Positions 526-32,552 of a stretch of 64,000 nt of DNA are shown in pieces. The number at the start of each line of letters is the position of its first letter. Within the stretch, counting starts at the first letter, position 1. The DNA is from an uncultured Flavobacteriaceae bacterium (GTDB lineage Bacteria > Bacteroidota > Bacteroidia > Flavobacteriales > Flavobacteriaceae), in assembly GCA_963793275.1 (NCBI GenBank), contig CAWBZL010000002.1:101590-165589 (forward strand), read 5' to 3'. A program made the position numbers and the translations under genes. Below the pieces are notes generated by a model. The model ran no database searches and had not been told where the DNA came from. It saw only the letters and a program-made list of their open reading frames with translations.

Positions 526-3045
526 TTACTTTTCAGGATATAAAATTTGCTCAATCCTGGCAATAGCATCTTCGTAGTGATATTTTGTTATGGTGTTTAC
601 ACCACGATTTTTTGCTGTTTTTAATTGTTTTTGCAGCGTTACCAATTCTCCGCGTACTAGTGGACGCACATCACTTGTGTTCACATCAAACGTTAATGTT
701 CCTTCAAAACCAATTCGCCCTCTTCGTGAATCAGGTCCTTTATCTGTCATTAAATATTCCATTCTATCCAGATAAGAACGTTGTAGGTTTCTTCGGTAAA
801 TATCTACACTTGTTCCTTGTCTTGCTTCACTCCATAAACCCGTGCGCAGCTCCTGCAACATATCCAGTGCCGAATAATAGTCGGTTTGGGTAGTTTCAGC
901 ATCAATTAAACGGCCTAACCTGTCAAAACTCAATAAACTATTTAAGTGTCGGGTTTGCAAACGACGCATACGTTCAAAATACCCCGCGTGATCTATATTT
1001 TGCAATATTGCCGGATCCAGTAACCAATCTGGAGTGGTAAATGCGTTGTCCTGCAACCATTGCATAGATTGCTGCTGTTCGGTTTTGTTTAAATGTGTGT
1101 AAATAGTTCCACCCTGTTTTGGAGTTTTAATATTCTCATAAATACCACCCACATTAGTAACTACGTGCCCAACATAACGGCTCCACACTCCAAGCATTTC
1201 TCCGTATAATTCTTCAAGATCGTTGTAGTTGTTGGTGCGATCGCTGGTCCATTTTGGCAAATTGGATGCTACATATTTTAAGTTTTTAAGTCCGTAATCG
1301 CTTGCTTTCATCGGGTTATCGCCAATGCCTTCGGTTTGGGATTGTGGGTCGAAACGACTTCCTTGCCTTCCAAATTTGTAGATAGGATTATCGCCCTTTT
1401 CTTCGATCCATTTGTCTAACGTAGCTTTTTCCGCTTCCGGAAAATTAGCGGTTGGAATTACACGATACCCCCAATTGGTTGCATAATGATCGTACGGCCC
1501 CATTTGCCGTATAAATCTGATGTTTTTATCACCGGGTTGAGCAATATAATTGTAACGCGCATAATCCATTAAACTGGCTGCAATTCCATTTTTCTGAGTG
1601 AAATCTCCGTCTCTGTAGTCTTCAACATTATAGGCGTAACTCGCGGCCATGTTATGTGGAAAGCCTAAAGCGTGTCCTACTTCGTGCGCAATGACCATAC
1701 GCATCATTTCACCAATTTCTTCGTCGGGAGTATTCAATGTTCTGGCACTGGGATTTGCGGCACCAGTTTCCAGCATATAGCGGTTTCTATAACTTCGTAA
1801 ATGATTGTGGTACCAGATAATATCACTTTCAATAATTTCGCCACTTCTGGGGTCGCTAACACTTGGTCCTACCGCATTTCTTGTGGTACTTGCCACATAA
1901 CGCACCACAGAATACCGAATATCTTCCGGGCTAAACTCCGGATCTTCCTCAACTGTAGGTGCGTCTTTGGCAATAATGGCATTTTTGAACCCGGCTGTTT
2001 CAAAAGGTTTTTGCCAGTCTTCTATGCCCTGCTTTATGTATTCCTGAAGATTCTCCGGCGTTCCGGGATCCAGATAATATACAATTGGTTTTACCGGTTC
2101 TACCAATTCACCTCTTGCGTACGCGGCAGGATCTTTAGGTTCCAATCTCCAACGGCGGATATACGTTTTCTCATCTGCTTTTAATTCGTCACTTCCAAAA
2201 TCGTACTGGCTTACGGTAAAAAACCCAACCCTTGGATCGAATAACCTTGGTTGCATAGGTTCTTCAGGCAAGAGAATCATAGATTGATTCATTTGTAAGC
2301 TAATGCTCTCTGTAGCCGAGTTCGAAGGAGGTTCGGAAGCGTCGTACGTCATATCCTGTTTTACTTCAATGTTGAGAGGAAAGCTTTTTACGCTATTGAT
2401 AAAGCTTCGGTCGGCATCCAGCTTTTTTACTTTGTATTGTTTCCGAAGTCTTGCTCCCAAACCACTAATGGCTTTTACATCTTCCTTAAAAAACTTCGTT
2501 ACGTCTATCACCACGGCGGTACTGTCTGTGCTAATGGCCTCCACATCGAACGCGTATAGAACAGGTTCGTAATTATTTACCGCAACCGATTTACTGATGG
2601 CTTTGGTACTATCCGCAATGTTAGTATAACTCTTAACTTTCAGTAAAACTTTGTCCTCAAAACGTTCCCAGTGAACCACCTGCTCGTTGGTTTTGGAACC
2701 TGCATTTACGTAGCCACCGCCTAAACCAGTTGGAAGCTGCGCAATACGGCTCACCCAAAGCATATCTTTTTTGTAGAGCTTGGTAGGGATTTCGTAGTAA
2801 AATTTATCTTCAACACGATGCACCACGAAAAGACCACTATCACTTATAGCTTCTTTTGTGATGACCTTGTCGTAGGGTTTTAATCCGTCTTTCTTGTCTT
2901 TTTTATTGGCAGATGCTTCAGCCGTTTCGGGTGTTTTTTTCTTATTACTGAACGTTCCGCAAGAAATTATAAGGGCAGAAAATAATAGGAGTGCTAAAAG
3001 CTTTTTCATCAAAATACGTTTTGCTGAACAAAATACGCATATCAA
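526..3045 (-). CDS. zinc-dependent metalloprotease, lipoprotein
   Basis: 839-aa ORF with a lipoprotein signal (LIISCGT) and a HEXXH zinc-binding motif (HEVGHALGF). The domain layout matches Bacteroidetes DUF5117/DUF5118-type zinc metalloproteases. Confidence 0.8.
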   Translation of the reverse strand: MICVFCSAKRILMKKLLALLLFSALIISCGTFSNKKKTPETAEASANKKDKKDGLKPYDKVITKEAISDSGLFVVHRVEDKFYYEIPTKLYKKDMLWVSRIAQLPTGLGGGYVNAGSKTNEQVVHWERFEDKVLLKVKSYTNIADSTKAISKSVAVNNYEPVLYAFDVEAISTDSTAVVIDVTKFFKEDVKAISGLGARLRKQYKVKKLDADRSFINSVKSFPLNIEVKQDMTYDASEPPSNSATESISLQMNQSMILLPEEPMQPRLFDPRVGFFTVSQYDFGSDELKADEKTYIRRWRLEPKDPAAYARGELVEPVKPIVYYLDPGTPENLQEYIKQGIEDWQKPFETAGFKNAIIAKDAPTVEEDPEFSPEDIRYSVVRYVASTTRNAVGPSVSDPRSGEIIESDIIWYHNHLRSYRNRYMLETGAANPSARTLNTPDEEIGEMMRMVIAHEVGHALGFPHNMAASYAYNVEDYRDGDFTQKNGIAASLMDYARYNYIAQPGDKNIRFIRQMGPYDHYATNWGYRVIPTANFPEAEKATLDKWIEEKGDNPIYKFGRQGSRFDPQSQTEGIGDNPMKASDYGLKNLKYVASNLPKWTSDRTNNYNDLEELYGEMLGVWSRYVGHVVTNVGGIYENIKTPKQGGTIYTHLNKTEQQQSMQWLQDNAFTTPDWLLDPAILQNIDHAGYFERMRRLQTRHLNSLLSFDRLGRLIDAETTQTDYYSALDMLQELRTGLWSEARQGTSVDIYRRNLQRSYLDRMEYLMTDKGPDSRRGRIGFEGTLTFDVNTSDVRPLVRGELVTLQKQLKTAKNRGVNTITKYHYEDAIARIEQILYPEK

Positions 3046-3084
3046 CCTAAAAAACCAATGAATGCCGTAGGTTCTTTTTGGCCT

Positions 3085-3531
3085 CTATTTACTTACTTCA
3101 AGCACTAATTCGTAATTTAAATTGGTAGTGCCCGACTCTTTTGTAGGATAGGGGTTTATTGCGGTGGCAGTGATAGTTGTAGCCCCACTTTTATAGAAAT
3201 TATGATTTTTAACCTCTCCTTTTTTAAGTGCACCAAAAATTATTTCGTTTCTATCCAGAGTCCTACCATCTTCGCTGGTTTCTACCAGGATCTTCGCTCT
3301 TCCTTCCCAAAAACAGGTAGTTCCTGTTGGACAACGGGAATCTTCCAGCACCTCTCTAAAATGAACCCGTAACTCACCTACCCTAATCTCTTTTCCTAAA
3401 GCCAGAGTAATAGTTCCTTCGTCAATCTGCGTAGAAATTTCAGTTTCGTTTGCTGAAGTAATTTCAGAAGTAGTTTTTGGCGTGCCACAGGAAGCGGCTG
3501 CGATGAAAGAGAGGATGATGAGTTTATACAT
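3085..3531 (-). CDS. hypothetical lipoprotein
   Basis: 148 aa with signal peptide plus lipobox (AAASCGT). No conserved catalytic motif seen. Confidence 0.5.
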   Translation of the reverse strand: MYKLIILSFIAAASCGTPKTTSEITSANETEISTQIDEGTITLALGKEIRVGELRVHFREVLEDSRCPTGTTCFWEGRAKILVETSEDGRTLDRNEIIFGALKKGEVKNHNFYKSGATTITATAINPYPTKESGTTNLNYELVLEVSK

Positions 3532-3654
3532 GAATTTCCTTTTTTATGAATAGTAAAAATAACGGAAAATAACGTTCTTAAACGTTATAGTTTCTTTAAA
3601 TAGCTAGCGCCTGAATCTCCTGTACCCTAATTTTACAATACAACAGTCCGCGTT

Positions 3655-4191
3655 ATGAAACTAATTCTCACATTTTTAATGCTATCCACGATGCCATTGT
3701 CCGAACCACAGCTTATATTCAATTTTTCTGAAACTTCAAACCTTGATGCCTGGCGCATTGTAGACGATGGCGTTATGGGTGGAAAATCTAATGGATCTTT
3801 TTCTTTAACCGAAGACGGACACGGAAATTTTTCGGGGGTTATCTCGCTTAAAAATAATGGCGGATTTTCATCTGTGCGTCACAATTTCAACGAGATTTCA
3901 GTTACTGAGGACTCTAAAATATGCATTAAGTTGAAAGGAGATGGGAAGCAATATCAATTCAGAATAAAACACAATACGAACGATTACTACAGTTATATTT
4001 TCCCGTTTGAAACTTCCGGAGCGTGGGAAACTATAGAGATTGAACTGAAAGATATGTATCCTTCCTTCCGTGGAAGAAAACTGGATATGCCTAATTTTTC
4101 AGAAGACAGCATAGAAGAATTGGTTTTTTTGATAGGAAACAAGAAAGAGGAGGCATTTACGTTACTTCTTGATAACATTCAGCTAAAGTAA
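3655..4191 (+). CDS. CIA30 family protein (complex I intermediate-associated protein 30-like)
   Basis: 178 aa with signal peptide. The pattern VMGGKSNGSF...SLKNNGGFSS is typical of CIA30/galactose-binding-like domain proteins. Confidence 0.6.
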   Translation: MKLILTFLMLSTMPLSEPQLIFNFSETSNLDAWRIVDDGVMGGKSNGSFSLTEDGHGNFSGVISLKNNGGFSSVRHNFNEISVTEDSKICIKLKGDGKQYQFRIKHNTNDYYSYIFPFETSGAWETIEIELKDMYPSFRGRKLDMPNFSEDSIEELVFLIGNKKEEAFTLLLDNIQLK

Positions 4192-9791: not shown

Positions 9792-9927
9792 ACGGCAAAG
9801 GTAATTATATTTTTTGAAGTGTATTGTTTTTATTTTTAGGGTTGGCTAAAAACTGTACTATAAGATGGTATTTCATCGGGAACCATTCAGTTCTACAGTT
9901 TAGTAATTCGCACCACAATATTCTAAC

Positions 9928-10473
9928 TTATCGTAACGGAAACCCCTTCGCAGCCCACCAGGGATGAATCTCGATAACCAATCTGCCGGCTTTCACCATA
10001 GGATCGCTATTGGCAAGACTATCTGCCATTTTTAAGGTGGGTACGTTGTAGATGGTTACACCACGAATCTCGCCATCGTCTCCAAATGGGCCGGATATAT
10101 CTGCATATCCATTAGCATACATTTTTCCTAAATGCTCTAAATGTAATTTTTGAAGACTATCTGCTTCAACTTTATTTTGACTCCGGTTAGGACCTGCTTT
10201 TAGAAATGCCATATAATATTGTTGCATCACAACGGTATCTCCGGAGTCCGGATCAACATAATCAAAGATTTGATAGCCATCTTTGGTGAGTTGTTCTTTT
10301 AAGGCAGCAACCGATGGTTTTTCATCTTCCGGACAAGGTTCCATAATATACTCTCGGTGGATTTGTGGTTTGCAAGCAATTGTCATTACGGATATGGTTA
10401 GTACTAAGAAAAAGTTTTTCATGAGTTTTATTTTTTGGACACTAAATCTGAAAGGGTCGTGTAAATTTACCAA
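9928..10473 (-). CDS. YciI-like family lipoprotein
   Basis: 181 aa with signal/lipobox (TIACK). The C-terminal region shows YciI-like motifs (AGPNR...HLEHLGK...SGPFGDDGE...IEIHPWW). Confidence 0.45.
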   Translation of the reverse strand: MVNLHDPFRFSVQKIKLMKNFFLVLTISVMTIACKPQIHREYIMEPCPEDEKPSVAALKEQLTKDGYQIFDYVDPDSGDTVVMQQYYMAFLKAGPNRSQNKVEADSLQKLHLEHLGKMYANGYADISGPFGDDGEIRGVTIYNVPTLKMADSLANSDPMVKAGRLVIEIHPWWAAKGFPLR

Positions 10474-26432: not shown

Positions 26433-28508
26433 ATGCAAAAAAACCCAAACATCAAAAACCTCCTCAAAACCCATTTCGGTTTCGACACCTTTCGTCCTAA
26501 CCAGCAGGAAATTATTGAAAATGTGCTGGCGGGTAAAAACACGCTGGCCATTATGCCTACAGGAGGGGGAAAGTCATTGTGTTTTCAGTTACCTGCTTTG
26601 ACATTGGAAGGAACAGCGATTGTTATTTCACCGTTAATTGCCTTAATGAAGGATCAGGTAGATGCCCTAAATGCCAACGGAATTTCGGCTTCATATTATA
26701 ATAGTAGCCAGGTGCCAGAGGTGCAGGAGGAAGTATTGACGAACTTAATGACGGGTCAATTAAAATTACTCTATGTGGCTCCGGAAAGCCTGTGGAACCT
26801 CACCAATTATTTTTCTAAGACTGAAATTTCCTTAATCGCAGTAGACGAGGCCCACTGTATTTCATCGTGGGGTCATGATTTCAGACCTGCCTACACGCAA
26901 TTAAGCAGGCTCCAAGACGAATTTCCAAAAACACCAGTGATCGCTTTAACCGCAACGGCAGACCGAGCAACACAGGACGATATTGTAAAACAACTAGGTA
27001 TTGGCAGTGCCAGAAGATTTGTATCTTCTTTCGACAGGCCTAACCTATACCTGGATGTGCGCCCTGGACAACAACGGATGCAGCAGGTATTAAAATTTCT
27101 GAAAAACAAAGAAACTCAAAGCGGTATTATTTACTGTTTAAGCCGAAAAAGTACTGAAGCCATCGCATCAAAACTCGTTGCAAAAGGCTACAAAGCCCAA
27201 GCGTATCACGCCGGAATTGAAGCTGAAGAACGCAGCAGGATCCAGGACGACTTTATAAATGACAGAGCTCCTATAATCGTGGCTACCATCGCTTTTGGGA
27301 TGGGAATAGACAAAAGCAATGTCCGTTGGGTGATACATTATAACATGCCAAAGAATATTGAAGGCTATTATCAGGAAATTGGCCGAAGCGGTCGTGACGG
27401 ACTACCCGCGCACGGATTAATGTTTTACAGCTTTGCCGACGTAATTATGCTTCGGAAATTTGCTCAGGGAACCCAGACCGAAGAATTTCAGCTGGCAAAA
27501 CTGGAACGTATGCAACAATTTGCCGAAGCCTTAAGTTGTCGTCGAAAAGCGTTGCTCAATTATTTTGGTGAACATATGACGCAGGATTGTGGTAATTGCG
27601 ACATTTGCAAAACTCCACCTCAATATATAGACGGTACCATAATCGCTCAAAAGGTATGCTCTGGAGTCGCCAGATTGAAAGAGCAGGAAGCAATGGGAAT
27701 GTTAATAGATGTGTTGAGAGGCTCTCACAACGCGCAGGTTGTTGAGAAAGGCTATCAAAATTTAAAGACCTTTGGAGCTGCTAAAGACATTCCGTGGAAA
27801 GATCTACAGCAGTATGTCATTCAGCTATTGAATCAAGGTGTGTTGGAAATTTGGTTCCACGAAAACGGCCGATTGGTGCTTACCCCAACTGCCAAAAAGA
27901 TTTTATTTGAAGGTAAAAAAGTGCGTCTGGCAGACTTGATGCAACCAGAGGCTGTTACCATTCCAAAAGAGCGGACCACAAAAAAACGCAAAGATTTATT
28001 CGAAAAATTACGTACGCTCCGTACCAAATTGGCTACCGAAGCCGGAGTGCCCGCGTATGTTATTTTTAGCGATGCCAGTTTGGAAGATATGGAAAATAAG
28101 CTCCCAAAAACGGTGGCCGATTTTGCTGAAATTAGTGGTGTGGGTCGCGCTAAACTGGAAAAATATGCCGATGTATTTTTACAAGTAGTCGCCAAGCATC
28201 AGGATGCTCAGGAAAATAAAGTAGCCACACACGAGCGCAGTCTGCAATTATTTGAAAAGGGATTGACGGTGCCAGAAATTTCAAAAAAGAGGGGTATTTC
28301 TGTTAATACTGTATACGGTCATTTTCTGAAGATGCACGAATTGGGTCACAAAATAGACTTGTCTCAATTTATCTCTACAGAAGAAATTTCAGCAGTGCAA
28401 AAGGCGAAATTAAAGCTGGAAAATCCCGATGGGTTAAAACTCTATTTCGATTATTTTGAAGAAAAAATGCCGTATTGGAAAATAAAGTTTGGGTTGTCCT
28501 TAGCGTAA
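26433..28508 (+). CDS. recQ: ATP-dependent DNA helicase RecQ
   Basis: 691 aa beginning FGFDTFRPNQQEII...MPTGGGKSLCFQLPAL, with a DEAH box, RecQ zinc-binding Cys cluster and C-terminal HRDC domain. Confidence 0.9.
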   Translation: MQKNPNIKNLLKTHFGFDTFRPNQQEIIENVLAGKNTLAIMPTGGGKSLCFQLPALTLEGTAIVISPLIALMKDQVDALNANGISASYYNSSQVPEVQEEVLTNLMTGQLKLLYVAPESLWNLTNYFSKTEISLIAVDEAHCISSWGHDFRPAYTQLSRLQDEFPKTPVIALTATADRATQDDIVKQLGIGSARRFVSSFDRPNLYLDVRPGQQRMQQVLKFLKNKETQSGIIYCLSRKSTEAIASKLVAKGYKAQAYHAGIEAEERSRIQDDFINDRAPIIVATIAFGMGIDKSNVRWVIHYNMPKNIEGYYQEIGRSGRDGLPAHGLMFYSFADVIMLRKFAQGTQTEEFQLAKLERMQQFAEALSCRRKALLNYFGEHMTQDCGNCDICKTPPQYIDGTIIAQKVCSGVARLKEQEAMGMLIDVLRGSHNAQVVEKGYQNLKTFGAAKDIPWKDLQQYVIQLLNQGVLEIWFHENGRLVLTPTAKKILFEGKKVRLADLMQPEAVTIPKERTTKKRKDLFEKLRTLRTKLATEAGVPAYVIFSDASLEDMENKLPKTVADFAEISGVGRAKLEKYADVFLQVVAKHQDAQENKVATHERSLQLFEKGLTVPEISKKRGISVNTVYGHFLKMHELGHKIDLSQFISTEEISAVQKAKLKLENPDGLKLYFDYFEEKMPYWKIKFGLSLA

Positions 28509-29198: not shown

Positions 29199-29804
29199 GT
29201 GATTAAGAACACATTAAAGATCACTAAAATGAACACAAATACACATAATTTATACTTATTCAAGGCTATGGAGGCATACCCTTGGGACCTTGAAAAAGCG
29301 GTTGAAGCATTGCAATATGCTTTGTCTTACGAACCAGAAAACGTAACCGCCCTTTGTTTGATGGCAAAAGTACACGCCGAACAACTAAGCGATTATGAAA
29401 CCGCAAAAAGCTATTTTGAAAAAGCAGTAGCAAGCGATATACGTGCCACCAAAATATATCCGGATTATGTACGTACGTTACTACAGAATCACGATTTTGA
29501 GGAAGCTCAAAAGCTGATAGATTTTGCGATGACTGTAAAAGCGGTGGATAGAGGTGGTTTACAATTATTGCAAGGGCAATTGTTTGAAAACTTGCAAAAG
29601 TTTGAAAAAGCTGAAGCAGCTTTAAAAGAAGCTCGTAACCTAGGGTTAAATTCAGATTTTATCGAATTTGTTGAAAGCGAATTGGAGCGCGTCACCAAAA
29701 AAAGGGAACGCCAAAACAATGAGCAAAAAACCGACAACTCTAAGGAAACAGCTAAAACGGAAGATTCAAAAAGCTGGGTCCACAGGCTAAGTAGCTTACT
29801 ATAA
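29199..29804 (+). CDS. hypothetical helical/TPR-like protein (true start possibly ATG at 29229)
   Basis: 201 aa of helical repeat-like sequence with a charged C-terminal tail. No catalytic motif. Confidence 0.45.
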   Translation: MIKNTLKITKMNTNTHNLYLFKAMEAYPWDLEKAVEALQYALSYEPENVTALCLMAKVHAEQLSDYETAKSYFEKAVASDIRATKIYPDYVRTLLQNHDFEEAQKLIDFAMTVKAVDRGGLQLLQGQLFENLQKFEKAEAALKEARNLGLNSDFIEFVESELERVTKKRERQNNEQKTDNSKETAKTEDSKSWVHRLSSLL

Positions 29805-29875
29805 ATCAGGATAAAATCTAAGTTTAATTTATAAAGGAAACAATAAAATCCGCTCTCTGTAAAGAGGGTGGTATA

Positions 29876-29959
29876 CGGGAGTGCGTCAACGCTGGAGAGT
29901 TGAGATAGTCTGTAAAACTATTCCTTAGTAGCTGAATAGGTTCAAATCCTTTCACTCCC
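29876..29959 (+). tRNA. tRNA-Tyr(GTA)-like, class II, with aberrant D-arm and a T-stem mismatch
   Basis: Perfect acceptor stem gggagtg/cactccc, anticodon arm atagt-ctgtaaa-actat and a long variable arm. C8 replaces U8, the D-loop is atypical and the T-stem has a U:U mismatch. Confidence 0.35.
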
Positions 29960-29962
29960 ACA

Positions 29963-30035
29963 GAGTACCGTAGTTCAAAGGCTGGAGCGTCCGGTTGTCT
30001 CCCGGAAAGGTACGGGTTCGAGTCCCGTCGGTACT
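29963..30035 (+). tRNA. tRNA-Asp(GTC)
   Basis: 73-nt cloverleaf: acceptor agtaccg/cggtact, D-stem gttc/gagc, anticodon loop ttgtctc, T-arm acggg-ttcgagt-cccgt. Position 37 is U rather than a purine. Confidence 0.6.
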
Positions 30036-30167
30036 GCGAATGATATTGAAGGAGTTTGCATCGGGACGAGAAGTTTATCCTGAGTAGTGGTGAGGCACGA
30101 GCCGCGAATCGAAGGGAGTCCCGTCGGTACGGTCATGCCTCCGACGAGAGAGGCACGAACCAGAGGA

Positions 30168-30239
30168 AGGCACTTTAGCATAGTGGTTGGTGCACCTCAC
30201 TTTCTATGAGGAGACCAGGGTTTGATTCCCTGATGGAGT
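30168..30239 (+). ncRNA. tRNA-Glu(TTC)-like unit with non-pairing acceptor 3' strand (degenerate)
   Basis: It has D-, anticodon- (cctca-ctttcta-tgagg) and T-arms, but the T-loop tttgatt lacks C56 and the 3' strand atggagt cannot pair with 5' ggcactt. Confidence 0.3.
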
Positions 30240-30243
30240 ACAA

Positions 30244-30339
30244 TGGGCTTATGGTGTAGCGGATAGCATGCTTGGCTTCGAACCAAGTGGTATGTTGCCT
30301 GTGCCGCACTTGATGCGGTATTCAAATCCTGTTAAGCCC
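30244..30339 (+). ncRNA. tRNA-like unit (anticodon TCG) carrying a ~20-nt hairpin insertion in the variable/T region
   Basis: Perfect acceptor gggctta/taagccc and anticodon arm cttgg-cttcgaa-ccaag. A 44-nt segment containing hairpin tgccgca-cttga-tgcggta sits where the variable loop and T-arm should be, and cctgt is duplicated. Confidence 0.3.
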
Positions 30340-30344
30340 ACAAA

Positions 30345-30417
30345 TTGAGGTATAACTCAGCGGCTAGAGTACCGTGCTTTTAACACGGGAGTCCTAGGTT
30401 CAAATCCTAGTGCCTCA
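30345..30417 (+). tRNA. tRNA-Lys(TTT)
   Basis: 73-nt canonical cloverleaf with U8A9, D-stem actc/gagt, anticodon loop cttttaa and T-arm ctagg-ttcaaat-cctag. The 1:72 pair is U:A. Confidence 0.7.
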
Positions 30418-30421
30418 ACAA

Positions 30422-30492
30422 TAAACCCATAGTGTAGTGGTAGCACACAAGATTTTGATTCTTGGGGTCTGAGTTCGAATCTCGGTGGGTTT
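30422..30492 (+). tRNA. tRNA-Gln(TTG)
   Basis: 71-nt cloverleaf with acceptor aaaccca/tgggttt, anticodon arm caaga-ttttgat-tcttg and T-arm ctgag-ttcgaat-ctcgg. Confidence 0.7.
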
Positions 30493-30500
30493 ACACTATA

Positions 30501-30573
30501 TGGAACAGTAGCAAAGCGGGTCAATGCACTGGATTGAAGCTCCAGGAATACGGGTTCGAGTCCTGTCTGTTCC
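30501..30573 (+). tRNA. tRNA-Phe(GAA)
   Basis: 73 nt with perfect acceptor ggaacag/ctgttcc, anticodon arm ctgga-ttgaagc-tccag and T-arm acggg-ttcgagt-cctgt. Confidence 0.7.
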
Positions 30574-30574
30574 A

Positions 30575-30754
30575 CGAAAGGTCTGTAACGCAGATGATAG
30601 TATCAAGCGGGTCTTGTTGTGTGTTTCGGTATAGCACCATTGCATACGGCGTTGCAACTAGTATTGCGAACGTATGTGCAACTTGACTTGAAGGTTTTGC
30701 TGTTTTCCAAAAAATAGCGGCAATCGTTTCGTGGGTTCGAATCCCACTCCCGCC
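30575..30754 (+). ncRNA. structured spacer ending in a canonical tRNA T-arm plus acceptor-3'-like tail, with no matching 5' half
   Basis: gtggg-ttcgaat-cccac at 30730-30746 followed by tcccgcc. Upstream contains the palindrome gttgcaac and hairpins, but no complementary acceptor 5' strand. Confidence 0.2.
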
Positions 30755-30756
30755 CA

Positions 30757-30840
30757 AGCAGGGATAGCGTAGTGGTTAACGCACCAGATAAAGGATCTGG
30801 CAAACGAGAGCAGATGTCGCGGGTTCGACTCCCGCTCCCA
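30757..30840 (+). ncRNA. class II tRNA-like unit (Leu-like, anticodon region AAG) with a 5-nt anticodon loop and a mismatched acceptor
   Basis: U8A9, D-arm gcgt-agtggtta-acgc, long variable region and canonical T-arm gcggg-ttcgact-cccgc. The anticodon hairpin ccagat-aaagg-atctgg has no U33, and only 4 of 7 acceptor pairs form. Confidence 0.25.
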
Positions 30841-30847
30841 ATGTAAA

Positions 30848-30920
30848 TTGGGGTAGCTCAGTTGGTAGAGCACTGCACTTTTAATGCAGGTAATGGACTC
30901 AAAATCCATCATCGTAAAGA
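30848..30920 (+). ncRNA. second tRNA-Lys(TTT)-like unit: canonical 5' two-thirds fused to a non-tRNA 3' end
   Basis: ggggtagctcagttggtagagcactgcacttttaatgcag is a textbook Lys 5' half. Downstream has hairpin atgga-ctcaaaa-tccat (non-TpsiC loop) and 3' strand catcgta that does not pair. Confidence 0.3.
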
Positions 30921-31448
30921 AGGTCAACTTTTAAAAAAGACCACCAGCCTGTCACGCTGTTAAATTTGACAAAAATAGTATGGGAAGCGTCGGTTTAGAT
31001 TTGCTGAAACGTGAATGAAGAACACTCCTGAAAGTACCTTGAGTGGCGCCGGTGGCTAGTAAAGAATAAATTTCTTTGTGAGCATTTTGAAACCATTGAA
31101 CCTTTTTATTAGGAATCCGTACCTGGAGCCTACTAAAAGGAAGGATGTGGTTTCAACGCCTTACAAACAGGTTTTGTAACTGGTAGCCACCCCGTCACTC
31201 CGTCACTGGAAAGAGGATGTGCCCTGTACTGTTTTTAATTGAAAAGGATTGCGTTAGGGATTGAGCGTTATGTATGAGCTCTTTTTAATTGTTTGAGCAA
31301 TTAGAAAAGCGAGTAGCGAAAGCCCGACCCAGTATTGCTTGAGGTATGAAAAGCGATATTGGGAAACGCCCAAAATACAAAAGAAATACACGGTCCCCGT
31401 TACAGACTGTGTTGTTAACTGAATGTTTAATTTCTAAAACTTAAAAAA

Positions 31449-32552
31449 ATGAAAAGAGTTAGAATTAATACCGGAATGGTAGGTTTGGTCTTCAAGAGAG
31501 GAGATTACAAACGAGTAGTAACACAAGGTGTCTATTGGTTAAGCTTTGGAGAGCGTGTTGTAAAATACAACCTTGCCGAAGCCATGCGCAAGGCACCCGT
31601 AGCATTAGAAATTCTTGAAAGGGACGAAGCTTTGGTGGCCCTTTGGCACCAGGTAGATGTTTTGGATACAGAATTGGTCATCGTTTATAAGAACGGCCAA
31701 TACAACCAGATATTAACAGCTGGAAGATATGTATTCTGGAAAGGGTTGATAGACTACAGCTTTACACGTGTAGACCTTACAAAGATCTATATCACGGAAG
31801 CGATTGATACGTCACTTTTTGCCAAATTAGAATTGGCCAAGTATATCCGTTCTTTTGAAGTGGCAACATCTGAAAAAGCGGTGCTTTTAGTAGACGATGT
31901 TTATGTGAAAACCTTAACCGGTGGTACGTACCGCTTCTGGAGAAATGAAACCACTATTAAAATTGCAAAAGCAGATATGCGACAATTGCAATTGGAAGTA
32001 GCTGGACAGGAATTGTTAACCAAGGATAAAGCGGCAATCCGTATCAACTTTTACGCGCAGTATAAAGTAAGCAATGTGGAGCGAGCGCTCTTGGAAAATA
32101 AGGACTACGAGAAGCAATTATACGTGGCTATGCAGTTGGCGTTACGTGCGTATGTAGGTACGTATACTTTAGACGAACTTTTGGAAAACAAATCACAAAT
32201 CGCGAACGCTGTGTTTGAAGACACAAAGACAGCCGCAGATAAATTGGGTGTTACGGTAGTATACTGTGGAATCCGGGATGTGATCTTAACCGGGGAAATG
32301 AAGGACATCATGAACCAGGTGTTGGTTGCACAAAAGAAAGCTCAGGCTAATGTAATTACAAGACGTGAAGAAACAGCTTTGACCAGAAGCTTGTTGAATA
32401 CCGCCAAATTAATGGAGGACAATACCATGCTTTACAAATTGAAAGAGATGGAATACGTAGAGAAAATTGCCGACAAGATTGGCGAGATCACCGTTTCCGG
32501 AAACGGAAACATGGTGAAACAATTAACCGAAATTTTTGCGGTGAGCAAATAG
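31449..32552 (+). CDS. SPFH/Band 7 (stomatin/prohibitin-like) domain protein
   Basis: 367 aa. The C-terminal half has the SPFH core and the characteristic Ala/Gln-rich coiled-coil (VLVAQKKAQANVITRREETALTRSLL). Confidence 0.7.
   Translation: MKRVRINTGMVGLVFKRGDYKRVVTQGVYWLSFGERVVKYNLAEAMRKAPVALEILERDEALVALWHQVDVLDTELVIVYKNGQYNQILTAGRYVFWKGLIDYSFTRVDLTKIYITEAIDTSLFAKLELAKYIRSFEVATSEKAVLLVDDVYVKTLTGGTYRFWRNETTIKIAKADMRQLQLEVAGQELLTKDKAAIRINFYAQYKVSNVERALLENKDYEKQLYVAMQLALRAYVGTYTLDELLENKSQIANAVFEDTKTAADKLGVTVVYCGIRDVILTGEMKDIMNQVLVAQKKAQANVITRREETALTRSLLNTAKLMEDNTMLYKLKEMEYVEKIADKIGEITVSGNGNMVKQLTEIFAVSK

Follow-up and report, generated by a model that had tools for sequence, protein, structure and literature searches.

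A putative large RNA with permuted tRNA-like modules between an eroding tRNA array and a slipin gene in flavobacteria

Introduction

What does a run of about ten head-to-tail tRNA-like units, several of them visibly defective, represent when it lies upstream of a gene for a slipin, a protein with an SPFH/Band_7 domain? The question is raised by a 64,000-nucleotide (nt) stretch of DNA from an uncultured Flavobacteriaceae bacterium (assembly GCA_963793275.1, contig CAWBZL010000002.1, positions 101,590 to 165,589 of the forward strand), hereafter called the window. An earlier analysis of the letters alone, called here the sequence-only reading, delineated such a run at 29876-30920 and proposed either a tRNA gene cluster eroded by partial duplication or recombination, or an array of tRNA-like RNAs with non-decoding roles. 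Flavobacteriales, among them fish pathogens, are major polysaccharide degraders of marine, soil and animal-host environments.

Our analyses indicate, with a probability of roughly 70% for the explanation as a whole, that two separate, adjacent and co-oriented chromosomal features have to be distinguished. The first, at 29877-30575, is the remnant of a tRNA array, in which the Tyr, Asp, Lys, Gln and Phe genes still look functional and the Glu and Arg-TCG units appear to be recent, lineage-specific pseudogenes. The second, at 30601-31236, would be a single conserved structured RNA composed of a 5' domain, two permuted tRNA-like modules and a 3' domain. By its sequence the array half looks like an ordinary, if instructive, decaying spare tRNA set, and the other half like a widespread, strongly supported and apparently undescribed large RNA. 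The end of the feature at 30920 has to be abandoned, as the conserved element runs from 30601 to about 31236. Each of the two earlier proposals survives in part. Decay through partial duplication and recombination fits 29877-30575 (the lesions of the Glu and TCG units, a copied piece of the Asp gene and a rearrangement) but not 30731-30910. Non-decoding tRNA-like RNAs fit the latter segment, except that its units appear as permuted modules of one ~636-nt RNA rather than as stand-alone RNAs.

Structure and conservation of the RNA

The comparative set consisted of 80 species-level loci anchored on the slipin gene (L001-L080). Presence of the RNA was assessed in the 77 orthologous loci with enough upstream DNA, its length in 78 sequences, and array gene counts in 70 species-level loci. 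An independent, RNA-anchored set of 80 metagenome contigs was retrieved with a short DNA motif. tRNAs were detected with ARAGORN and with the Rfam covariance model RF00005 (gathering threshold 29 bits), and 502 array tRNAs were aligned by anticodon. The features identified are collected in Table 1.

Table 1. Features of the tRNA-like stretch and its surroundings (window coordinates)
Feature	Position	Strand	Evidence and remarks
RecQ	26433-28508		on the 5' neighbour side of the tRNA-like stretch
TPR protein	29199-29804		between RecQ and the tRNA-like stretch
tRNA-Tyr(GTA), class II	29877-29961	+	ARAGORN; Rfam 34.3 bits; C8; one T.T mismatch in the T stem
tRNA-Asp(GTC), intact	29964-30037	+	ARAGORN; Rfam 55.4 bits; A1 and U37, typical for the array family
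Spacer without tRNA call	30038-30169	+	exact 15-nt copy (30116-30130) of the Asp 3' end (30020-30034), by self-BLAST
tRNA-Glu(TTC), probable pseudogene	30170-30241	+	Rfam 42.3 bits; three acceptor positions unpaired
tRNA-Arg(TCG), probable pseudogene	30245-30340	+	96 nt; Rfam 39.5 bits with the insertion; missed by ARAGORN
tRNA-Lys(TTT), intact	30346-30419	+	ARAGORN; Rfam 64.1 bits; U1-A72 pair, typical for the array family
tRNA-Gln(TTG), intact	30423-30494	+	ARAGORN; Rfam 66 bits
tRNA-Phe(GAA), intact, last array gene	30502-30575	+	ARAGORN; Rfam 65.6 bits
Putative conserved structured non-coding RNA, ~636 nt	30601-31236	+	conservation profile; orthologs of 548-712 nt (78 sequences)
5' domain	30601-30723	+	P1: TCAAG (30603-07) with CTTGA (30687-91); hairpins 30621-37, 30642-79 and 30695-723
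Module A, circularly permuted cloverleaf	30724-30807	+	closing stem TCGTTT (30724-29) with AAACGA (30802-07)
Module A, parts	30731-30782	+	T arm 30731-47; closed acceptor-like hairpin 30748-64; U8-A9; D arm 30767-82
Module B	30819-30909	+	T arm 30819-35; closed acceptor-like hairpin 30836-53 (CCCAAT-GTAA-ATTGGG); D arm 30856-71
Module B, 3' parts	30873-30909	+	anticodon-like arm 30873-89 (7-nt loop CTTTTAA); variable-arm-like hairpin 30893-909
Two short conserved linker hairpins	30922-42 and 30945-59	+	GGTC...GACC and AGC...GCT; join the modules to the 3' domain
3' domain	30971-31236	+	closing long-range helix 30971-91/31216-36; nested long-range helices inside
Slipin (SPFH/Band_7) gene, 367 amino acids	31449-32552	+	invariable downstream neighbour of the large RNA

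The RNA block starts with ATATCAAG…GTCTTGTTGNGTGTTTC, and its first conserved helix begins at 30603. All its parts show covariation. In the 5' domain, an RNAalifold analysis of 42 sequences yielded 36 pairs, 24 of which have compensatory changes. The two modules and the 3' domain were also submitted to controls in which the 3' partners were slid or the data shuffled; the 5' domain was assessed by compensatory pairs alone. For module A (73 sequences), 96.2% of the cells are paired, versus 38-50% with slid partners; 327 cells are changed on both sides, and 17 of the 20 pairs show compensatory changes. Module B (49 sequences) is paired in 94.1% of the cells, versus 29-46% when slid, with 243 cells changed on both sides and compensatory changes in 20 of 25 pairs. 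The corresponding values for the 3' domain (34 sequences) are 84.2% versus 39-49%, 208 cells and 36 of 44 pairs. In none of these three cases did any of 500 shuffles reach the observed value. A helix of the linker region (10-13/28-34 of alignment A4) is paired in 91-94% of cases, with compensatory changes present, and the 3' domain contains the conserved blocks AACACTCCTGAAAGTACCTTGAG (31021-43) and CCGTCAC (about 31199). When the window RNA was folded alone by minimum free energy, the consensus architecture was reproduced (z = -4.07). The assignment of the RNA to the + strand follows from its G.U pairs and from how the T and D loops are oriented.

The organization of the modules explains why this part of the stretch had looked like a series of broken tRNAs. 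The first half of module A comprises an anticodon-stem-like 3' strand, a 5-nt variable loop (mostly AGGTC), a T arm and an acceptor stem of 6-7 base pairs (bp), whose closing loop measures from 3 to over 30 nt; after this stem come U8-A9, a D arm, A26 and an anticodon-stem-like 5' strand. Module A is a predicted circularly permuted tRNA, opened at the anticodon loop, with the anticodon-stem-like helix closing the junction. The conserved, covarying pairings at 30758-30843 and 30853-30910 occur between the 3' strand of one supposed unit and the 5' strand of the next. The ARAGORN call 'tRNA-Leu(aag)' at 30758-30843 is, on this alignment evidence, a mis-call that runs from the 3' half of module A into the 5' half of module B, and by the same token the 92-96-nt 'Arg(tcg)', 'Lys(ttt)' and 'Phe(gaa)' calls made by ARAGORN at this place in other genomes are mis-annotations. 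The peculiarities listed before are present all the same. The 5-nt anticodon loop belongs to an extra anticodon-like hairpin of module A (30784-30800, CCAGAT-AAAGG-ATCTGG) that is restricted to the clade of the window. The isolated Lys 5' half (30853-30889) does consist of a textbook D arm followed by an anticodon arm with TTT, and a 3' acceptor strand to match it is missing.

Two T arms are found in 63 of the 78 RNAs and three or four in 13. Approximately 76% of the acceptor-like stems have 6-7 bp, and the stems are followed by TA or TG. As the modules keep T loops (TTCRANY), GG-containing D loops and U8, each of them should fold into a tRNA-like L shape. The closure of the acceptor by a loop means that a module could not be charged or decode as made. 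A CCA encoded in the acceptor-hairpin loops is not conserved (only ~7 of 76 module B loops begin with ACC(A)), nor is a G3.U70 pair: the 3:70 equivalent is U.G in 7 of 73 cases for the first hairpin (hp1) and in 0 of 49 for the second (hp2), and the stems covary freely. In the anticodon-like loop of module B, U33 and A37 are constant and the 'anticodon' between them differs among species, and the modules resemble Lys-, Met-, Asn- or Leu-like tRNAs depending on the species.

Distribution and association with slipin

In the slipin-anchored search, the 5' anchor motif of the RNA was found upstream of slipin in 77 of 77 loci. The RNA block sits between the array and slipin independently of the former, as it is present at array sizes from 0 through 19. 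The orthologous loci thus show a variable array followed by an invariant RNA, and not the four genes with unrelated spacers that the sequence-only reading had named as a possible refutation. The reverse search gave the same picture. A covariance model of the 5' domain (R1) has a single match in the 64-kb window (125.7 bits, E 7e-22) and matches 47 of the 80 motif-retrieved metagenome contigs, 46 of them over the full length with 99.6-149 bits and one (L107), cut by the contig end, with 66 bits; the other 33 contigs have no R1 score and represent chance motif matches. Every RNA-anchored contig with at least ~1.1 kb of downstream sequence has a slipin gene starting 560-940 nt after the start of the RNA. 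The identity of these slipins to the window protein is as low as 40-54%, and two distant ones fall in clusters named Flavobacterium sasangense and Chryseobacterium, indicating that the RNA-slipin pair spans at least Flavobacteriaceae and Weeksellaceae. The two are always on the same strand, never with another gene between them. This adjacency, found from both search directions in a region that otherwise gains and loses genes, argues for a functional link.

The distance from the 3' end of the RNA to the slipin ATG is 24-336 nt, with 24-93 nt in several genera, and spacers as short as 24 nt favour co-transcription. On the other side, array and RNA are always co-oriented, and the first helix of the RNA starts 1-2 nt past the 3' end of a tRNA in at least 14 loci. 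Together these two features suggest a common precursor, with tRNA processing setting the 5' end of the RNA. Searches for transcription signals gave little: a sigma-70/terminator scan yielded nothing on the + strand, and for the Bacteroidetes-type promoter (TTG…TAnnTTTG) just two -7-like boxes, both inside the RNA, were found in 29750-31460. Many spacers have a hairpin directly after the RNA.

The slipin of the window is 93% identical to a protein from a Flavobacteriaceae metagenome-assembled genome and 80% identical to an Aureisphaera protein; an exact-sequence look-up gave no match. It harbours the Band_7/SPFH domain (PF01145). In an AlphaFold2 model (mean predicted local distance difference test score, pLDDT, of 74), three five-strand beta modules precede the SPFH domain, which is followed by a long helix. 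In the N-terminal 176 residues, the beta-strand motif with which an SPFH domain usually begins occurs three times in tandem. Residues 2-41 form beta strands, with no N-terminal helix, which is unusual for the family. None of the PADLOC defence-system models matched the protein, and searches against NCBIfam returned sub-threshold HflK matches alone. The next genes are a deacetylase-family gene, then Tex and MetRS.

A number of other elements recur around the RNA. The sequence (A)ATGTTTAA(T/C) lies ~20-25 nt before the slipin start in the window (31420-31449) and in L001, L004, L006, L016 and L081; it is kept even in Flavobacterium-type contigs and may be a promoter or a translation-initiation element. 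Between the RNA 3' end and slipin, the window carries a clade-specific insertion of ~120 nt (31250-31370), which is a gap in ~80% of the other loci; related sequence, marked by the motif GGGAAACGCCCAAAATA, is found in L001, L002, L005 and L060. There is a weak Flavo-1 match at 31248-31333 (15.8 bits) and a terminator-like hairpin on the minus strand at 31359-31373.

Upstream of the RNA, AAGTTC(A/T)TT(A/G)AAAAT is found 15-50 nt before its start in most loci (e.g. L019, L039, L043, L053, L069 and L078), often followed by an optional hairpin, TTCCTGC…GCAGGAA. This motif, which departs from the Bacteroidetes consensus TAnnTTTG, may serve as a promoter or in processing. A tRNA-like fragment, GTAGGGAAGCGCATTTAGAGCC…CCAGTTCGAATCTGGTAAGAGGTAC, which has a T arm but gives no tRNA call, recurs within the ~100 nt just upstream of the RNA in L006, L012, L026, L030, L031, L038, L039, L041, L045, L046, L052, L061, L064, L067 and L071; it is not present in the window. 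A second recurrent element before the RNA (L009, L011, L014, L020, L025 and L034) has a terminator-like GC stem and T7 at its end. Finally, a Kordia contig (L080) has, at 9812-9930, a second low-scoring tRNA/YrlA-like pair (33 and 38 bits) ~2.7 kb past slipin and adjoining a tRNA-Gly gene; these matches are probably tandem tRNA-like genes.

The tRNA array

The segment 29877-30575 would be the remainder of a dispensable, supernumerary tRNA array that occupies this site family-wide, its lesions and rearrangements reflecting ordinary gene decay and recombination between similar units. Across relatives, the site holds 0-19 same-strand tRNAs (median 6), with none in 15 loci and the maximum in L027. 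Array size from 0 (15 species) to 19 at one site suggests that these genes are redundant with tRNAs encoded elsewhere, as judged from 64 kb of the genome. The order …Cys-Tyr-Asp-Pro-Glu-…-Leu-Leu-Arg-Gln-His-Phe is common across genera, and the order in the window is rearranged relative to L001. In the Asp and Lys families, stems are 90-100% paired with several pair types at most positions, and such compensatory changes indicate real tRNA genes in most species. Lys, Val and Ile array tRNAs share U1, and an encoded CCA is mostly absent.

In the window, the anticodons given by the sequence-only reading (GTA, GTC, TTC, TCG, TTT, TTG, GAA, AAG-like and TTT) and the lesions it described are all recovered by ARAGORN and in RF00005 alignments. 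ARAGORN makes seven calls between 29877 and 30843 (Tyr, Asp, Glu, Lys, Gln, Phe and 'Leu(aag)'). RF00005 gives nine matches above threshold, adding the TCG unit and a truncated Lys-like match at 30853-30910. All nine units thus reach the threshold of the covariance model, which had been named as a possible refutation, but the lesioned ones do so with low scores or as truncated matches: the distribution is bimodal, with Asp, Lys, Gln and Phe at 55-66 bits and the remaining five at 34-42 bits, and one match is truncated to model positions 7-64. The four high-scoring genes are those regarded as canonical before. That they are the only ones does not hold, since the Tyr(GTA) unit, an unusual sequence type, is kept with compensatory changes in L001, L004, L007, L009, L014, L016 and L020 and is, by this comparison, probably a functional class II tRNA, so that five genes look intact. 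These five have a 7-bp acceptor stem formed by their own 5' and 3' ends, which Glu lacks, and in Tyr, Lys, Gln and Phe the T arm is intact, with T54-Psi55-C56 in its loop, and the 7-nt anticodon loop has U33 and a purine 37. The Asp cloverleaf stems are 92-99% paired, with compensatory pair types, among 23 distinct orthologs. The intact genes are all on the + strand, with gaps of 2-10 nt.

Lesions were defined by reference to the closest relatives, L001 and L002. The acceptor 3' strand of the Glu unit, described before as unable to pair, leaves three positions unpaired in the RF00005 alignment; its 5' strand has lost 1 nt and carries a T>A substitution, and the T loop reads TTTGATT instead of TTCGATT. 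The L001 ortholog, against which it was aligned together with 30 others, scores 65.5 bits. The hairpin said to interrupt the TCG unit before a broken T arm is a 24-nt insertion (30294-30317) at the 5' side of the T stem, whose arm is degraded; the inserted piece forms a separate hairpin, and orthologs in L001, L002, L035 and L060 lack it. As the L001 and L002 orthologs are intact, the Glu and TCG lesions are lineage-specific. The exact copy of the Asp 3' end in the following spacer identifies that piece as a tRNA-derived fragment; the block of Asp and spacer is ~75% conserved in L001 and L003 and has a different array position in L001. Some units had also been said to lack U8, C56 or a purine at position 37. 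Tyr indeed has C8, Glu a T for C56, and Asp and Glu have U37. The last of these is not damage: U37 is found in 39 of 40 array Asp and 31 of 31 array Glu sequences, and judging from these alignments it is a conserved, family-wide oddity.

Other features of the array in relatives are worth recording, with examples of unusual units at L025 3760-3911 and L017 5001-5145. Units called Leu(TAG) and Leu(TAA) are just 74-75 nt long, without a long variable arm; the family also has 71-72-nt units called Tyr(ATA), which carry U37, and one unit in L017 has the anticodon TTA ('Stop'). In the Aquimarina locus L030, a minus-strand gene (2879-3736) for a 285-residue, multi-pass, transporter-like membrane protein splits the array between Ile(TAT) and His, and gaps of ~1 kb similar to this interruption are present in L033, L036 and L047. 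A phage link of array and RNA was sought by BLAST against 50,697 phage records, which gave only two weak tRNA-Tyr matches, and the RNA 5' motif had 0 matches in viral contigs; a phage origin of the locus is not supported by these searches.

Possible functions of the RNA

The following scheme would account for the locus. The array and the RNA would be transcribed together, and processing of tRNA 3' and 5' ends would set the 5' end of the RNA. By analogy with YrlA, the modules could act as handles for tRNA-binding enzymes such as RNase P, TruB/TrmA-type modifiers and the CCA-adding enzyme. RNase P might open the 7-bp hairpins, and the binding of enzymes might give stability or recruit partners. 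The RNA would work together with the adjoining slipin gene. Of the functional readings we rank first, at somewhat short of even odds, the one in which the RNA is a co-expressed partner of slipin, comparable to OLE and OapA.

Several points weigh against this scheme. Co-transcription, processing and the slipin interaction are all steps that we infer from sequence. The RNA-slipin spacer is poorly conserved in length and sequence and has clade-specific insertions, which does not suit a precise cis-regulatory expression platform. The terminal helix of the RNA is followed by a conserved U-run, a candidate terminator; if it acts as one, the RNA would be a transcript of its own. Some 20 nt 5' of the slipin ATG, the conserved motif AATGTTTAAT may belong to a promoter specific to slipin. 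In Flavobacterium psychrophilum, two Band-7 genes, which may or may not be orthologs of the slipin discussed here, have their own extracytoplasmic function (ECF)-type promoters (PMC9723704). The ECF-type motif of those genes, 'GTAAC…CGT', was sought in our sequences, and its spacing does not fit. Lastly, the 'supernumerary' status of the array is judged from the variation from 0 to 19 genes between species.

Some of these points bear on a rather unlikely alternative, in which the RNA forms a giant 5' leader of the slipin mRNA and acts in cis, setting slipin expression in response to a signal related to tRNA (the capacity of RNase P or of processing, modification enzymes or some other factor that binds tRNA). 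Its position on the same strand and immediately 5' of slipin, with no gene between, is what a leader would require, as are the 24-93-nt spacers without a recognisable promoter in several genera and the hairpins that follow the RNA in many spacers. However, a multi-domain RNA of 636 nt is far above known riboswitches and leaders in size, and the spacer of 24-336 nt offers no conserved expression platform up to the start codon. Its variability and the terminal helix with its U-run make a precise cis-regulatory switch less likely.

Less probable again is that the RNA is an independent, stable tRNA mimic and that its link with slipin reflects shared regulation or ancient gene order. As a decoy or sponge, it might then act on nucleases that target tRNA or on enzymes of processing or modification, or it might be a platform linked to the spare tRNA set. 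Its complete tRNA elbows, the array next to it and the module B loop, with its constant U33 and A37 around a varying 'anticodon', would suit this role, and the odd anticodon loops of the array (U37 in Asp and Glu) fit pressure from factors directed at anticodon loops. Yet the RNA occurs with arrays of 0 as well as of 19 genes and is therefore array-independent, its adjacency to slipin is tighter than ordinary synteny in a region gaining and losing genes, and slipin has no PADLOC defence match.

A more elaborate form of the partnership with slipin, which we consider quite improbable, would make the RNA the RNA subunit of a slipin-based ribonucleoprotein particle, a counterpart of the vault and its vault RNA or of OLE and OapA. 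Slipin could form a ring or cage, as other SPFH proteins do, and bind or enclose the RNA through its two tRNA-shaped elbows; the array of spare tRNAs would share a transcription unit with the RNA, and the arrangement would extend throughout Flavobacteriales. A vault-like slipin particle is an attractive possibility for which the evidence is weak.

We regard it as very improbable that the RNA is a YrlA-type Y RNA whose protein Ro60 (Rsr) is encoded elsewhere, with slipin nearby by accident. YrlA is the sole non-tRNA Rfam family that aligns repeatedly to the modules and has the same permuted order. The YrlA model gives 42.4 bits for module B and 24.3 bits for a second match in the window, and 26-38 bits in five other loci, far under its threshold of 69 bits. 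YrlA RNAs carry a Ro60-binding stem with the motif GNCGAAN0-1G and lie within 4 kb of rsr, and tandem tRNA-like sequences are a known source of false YrlA matches (PMC4201824). That motif is absent from the window RNA and found in 7 of 78 RNAs at inconsistent positions. Pfam detected no TROVE domain in nine of the 15 open reading frames of at least 380 amino acids, nor in the RecQ, TPR, slipin and deacetylase proteins; the SerRS, Tex, MetRS, Lhr-like helicase and DNA ligase reading frames were assigned from translations alone. Membership in YrlA was rejected on these three grounds: scores below 69 bits, no Ro60 motif, and no TROVE gene in the window reading frames scanned. The five-fold length and the two to four modules of the RNA argue in the same direction.

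The least credible account is that the whole stretch, 30731-30910 included, is a graveyard of decayed, functionless tRNA genes: the low tRNA-model scores of the units, the decay of the neighbouring array and the likeness of the modules to different tRNA types in different species, as recombination with tRNA genes would give, are all compatible with it, but the helices have been kept through hundreds of compensatory changes in 77 loci and 47 metagenome contigs from two families, the conserved pairings are closed acceptor hairpins between neighbouring 'units' and not acceptor stems within them, the flanking 5' and 3' domains are not tRNA-like and yet equally conserved and covarying, and slipin identities down to 40-54% make it unlikely that the alignments merely reflect recent ancestry.

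If the co-expressed partnership with slipin is correct, YrlA-kind tRNA mimicry would extend to a new partner, an SPFH/slipin protein, and the RNA would open a testable route to the function of bacterial SPFH proteins without an obvious membrane anchor. For annotation, parts of the RNA mislabelled as tRNA-Leu, tRNA-Arg, tRNA-Lys and tRNA-Phe genes would inflate and distort tRNA gene counts. The array itself, in which one site carries from 0 to 19 genes, Asp and Glu have U37 and the 'Leu' units are short, lends itself as a natural series to work on the retention and loss of spare tRNA sets.

Comparison with known systems

L-arrays are supernumerary tRNA arrays of 20-43 genes, with a sporadic, transfer-driven distribution on plasmids, phages and islands (PMC8421152). 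The array described here resembles them in its dense, same-strand, operon-like runs with redundant isoacceptors, and in being dispensable, pseudogene-prone and different between close relatives. At 7 units in 0.7 kb in the window, it exceeds the density of at least 2 genes per kb that defines L-arrays, and it shares their one-strand, operon-like spacing and redundant, dispensable content. It differs from them in size, with 7 units in the window and at most 19 genes in relatives, below the L-array minimum of 20, and its distribution is not horizontal or mobile. L-arrays are sporadic, whereas this array occupies a fixed syntenic site with a gene order shared family-wide, which points to vertical descent with erosion.

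For the RNA, Rfam 15 returned tRNA, repeated sub-threshold YrlA matches on the modules and a weak permuted-tmRNA match, and assigned no family. We did not find such an RNA described in open-access papers or bioRxiv preprints, and an earlier description elsewhere is possible.

YrlA (RF02553) is the closest parallel for the modules. Both have a permuted T arm, a loop-closed acceptor and a D arm, with a helix in place of the anticodon arm, and both adjoin a gene for a protein. Enzymes of tRNA metabolism act on the tRNA-like part of YrlA: in Mycobacterium smegmatis, a YrlA with a 7-bp closed acceptor is cut by RNase P and gets CCA in vivo (PMC4201824). In contrast to YrlA, which has ~110 nt, the RNA described here is about five times longer, at ~636 nt, has two to four tandem modules flanked by large non-tRNA-like 5' and 3' domains, and has slipin rather than rsr as its neighbour.

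In permuted tRNA genes and two-piece tmRNA, as in the modules, the T arm and the acceptor 3' strand are encoded before the acceptor 5' strand, and the loop between them could be removed by processing. Unlike these, module A has no anticodon loop in most species, and the RNA has neither a tag reading frame nor a series of pseudoknots. A tmRNA was rejected as a candidate: ARAGORN made no such call, and the Rfam tmRNA (12-22 bits) and tmRNA_permuted (28 bits) models scored below their thresholds of 47. The alanine identity pair G3.U70, by which a tmRNA acceptor stem is recognised, is not conserved either, as given above.

The models for OLE, GOLLD, ROOL, HEARO and raiA gave no match in 29700-31500 up to E = 10 or in five orthologous loci up to E = 1, and membership in GOLLD, ROOL and OLE was rejected for want of an Rfam match to the RNA. 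GOLLD and ROOL are large RNAs often found beside tRNA clusters, mostly associated with phages or prophages, in Firmicutes and relatives. The RNA described here shares with them a large structure beside tRNA genes; it differs in being chromosomal and absent from the viral collections searched. OLE is a complex, ~600-nt, lineage-restricted bacterial RNA whose biochemistry is unexplained and which lies beside oapA, the gene of a membrane-associated partner. A large, complex, lineage-restricted RNA next to a partner protein gene is what the two systems have in common. They differ in that there is no similarity of sequence or structure between them, OLE has no tRNA-like modules, and the interaction of RNA and slipin is hypothetical here. 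A multi-domain RNA of ~600 nt, conserved across Flavobacteriales and lacking from both Rfam 15 and the literature that could be searched, would add to the few large bacterial RNAs whose functions are unexplained (OLE, GOLLD, ROOL and raiA), and it would provide the first case that we can document of several circularly permuted tRNA bodies inside one large RNA.

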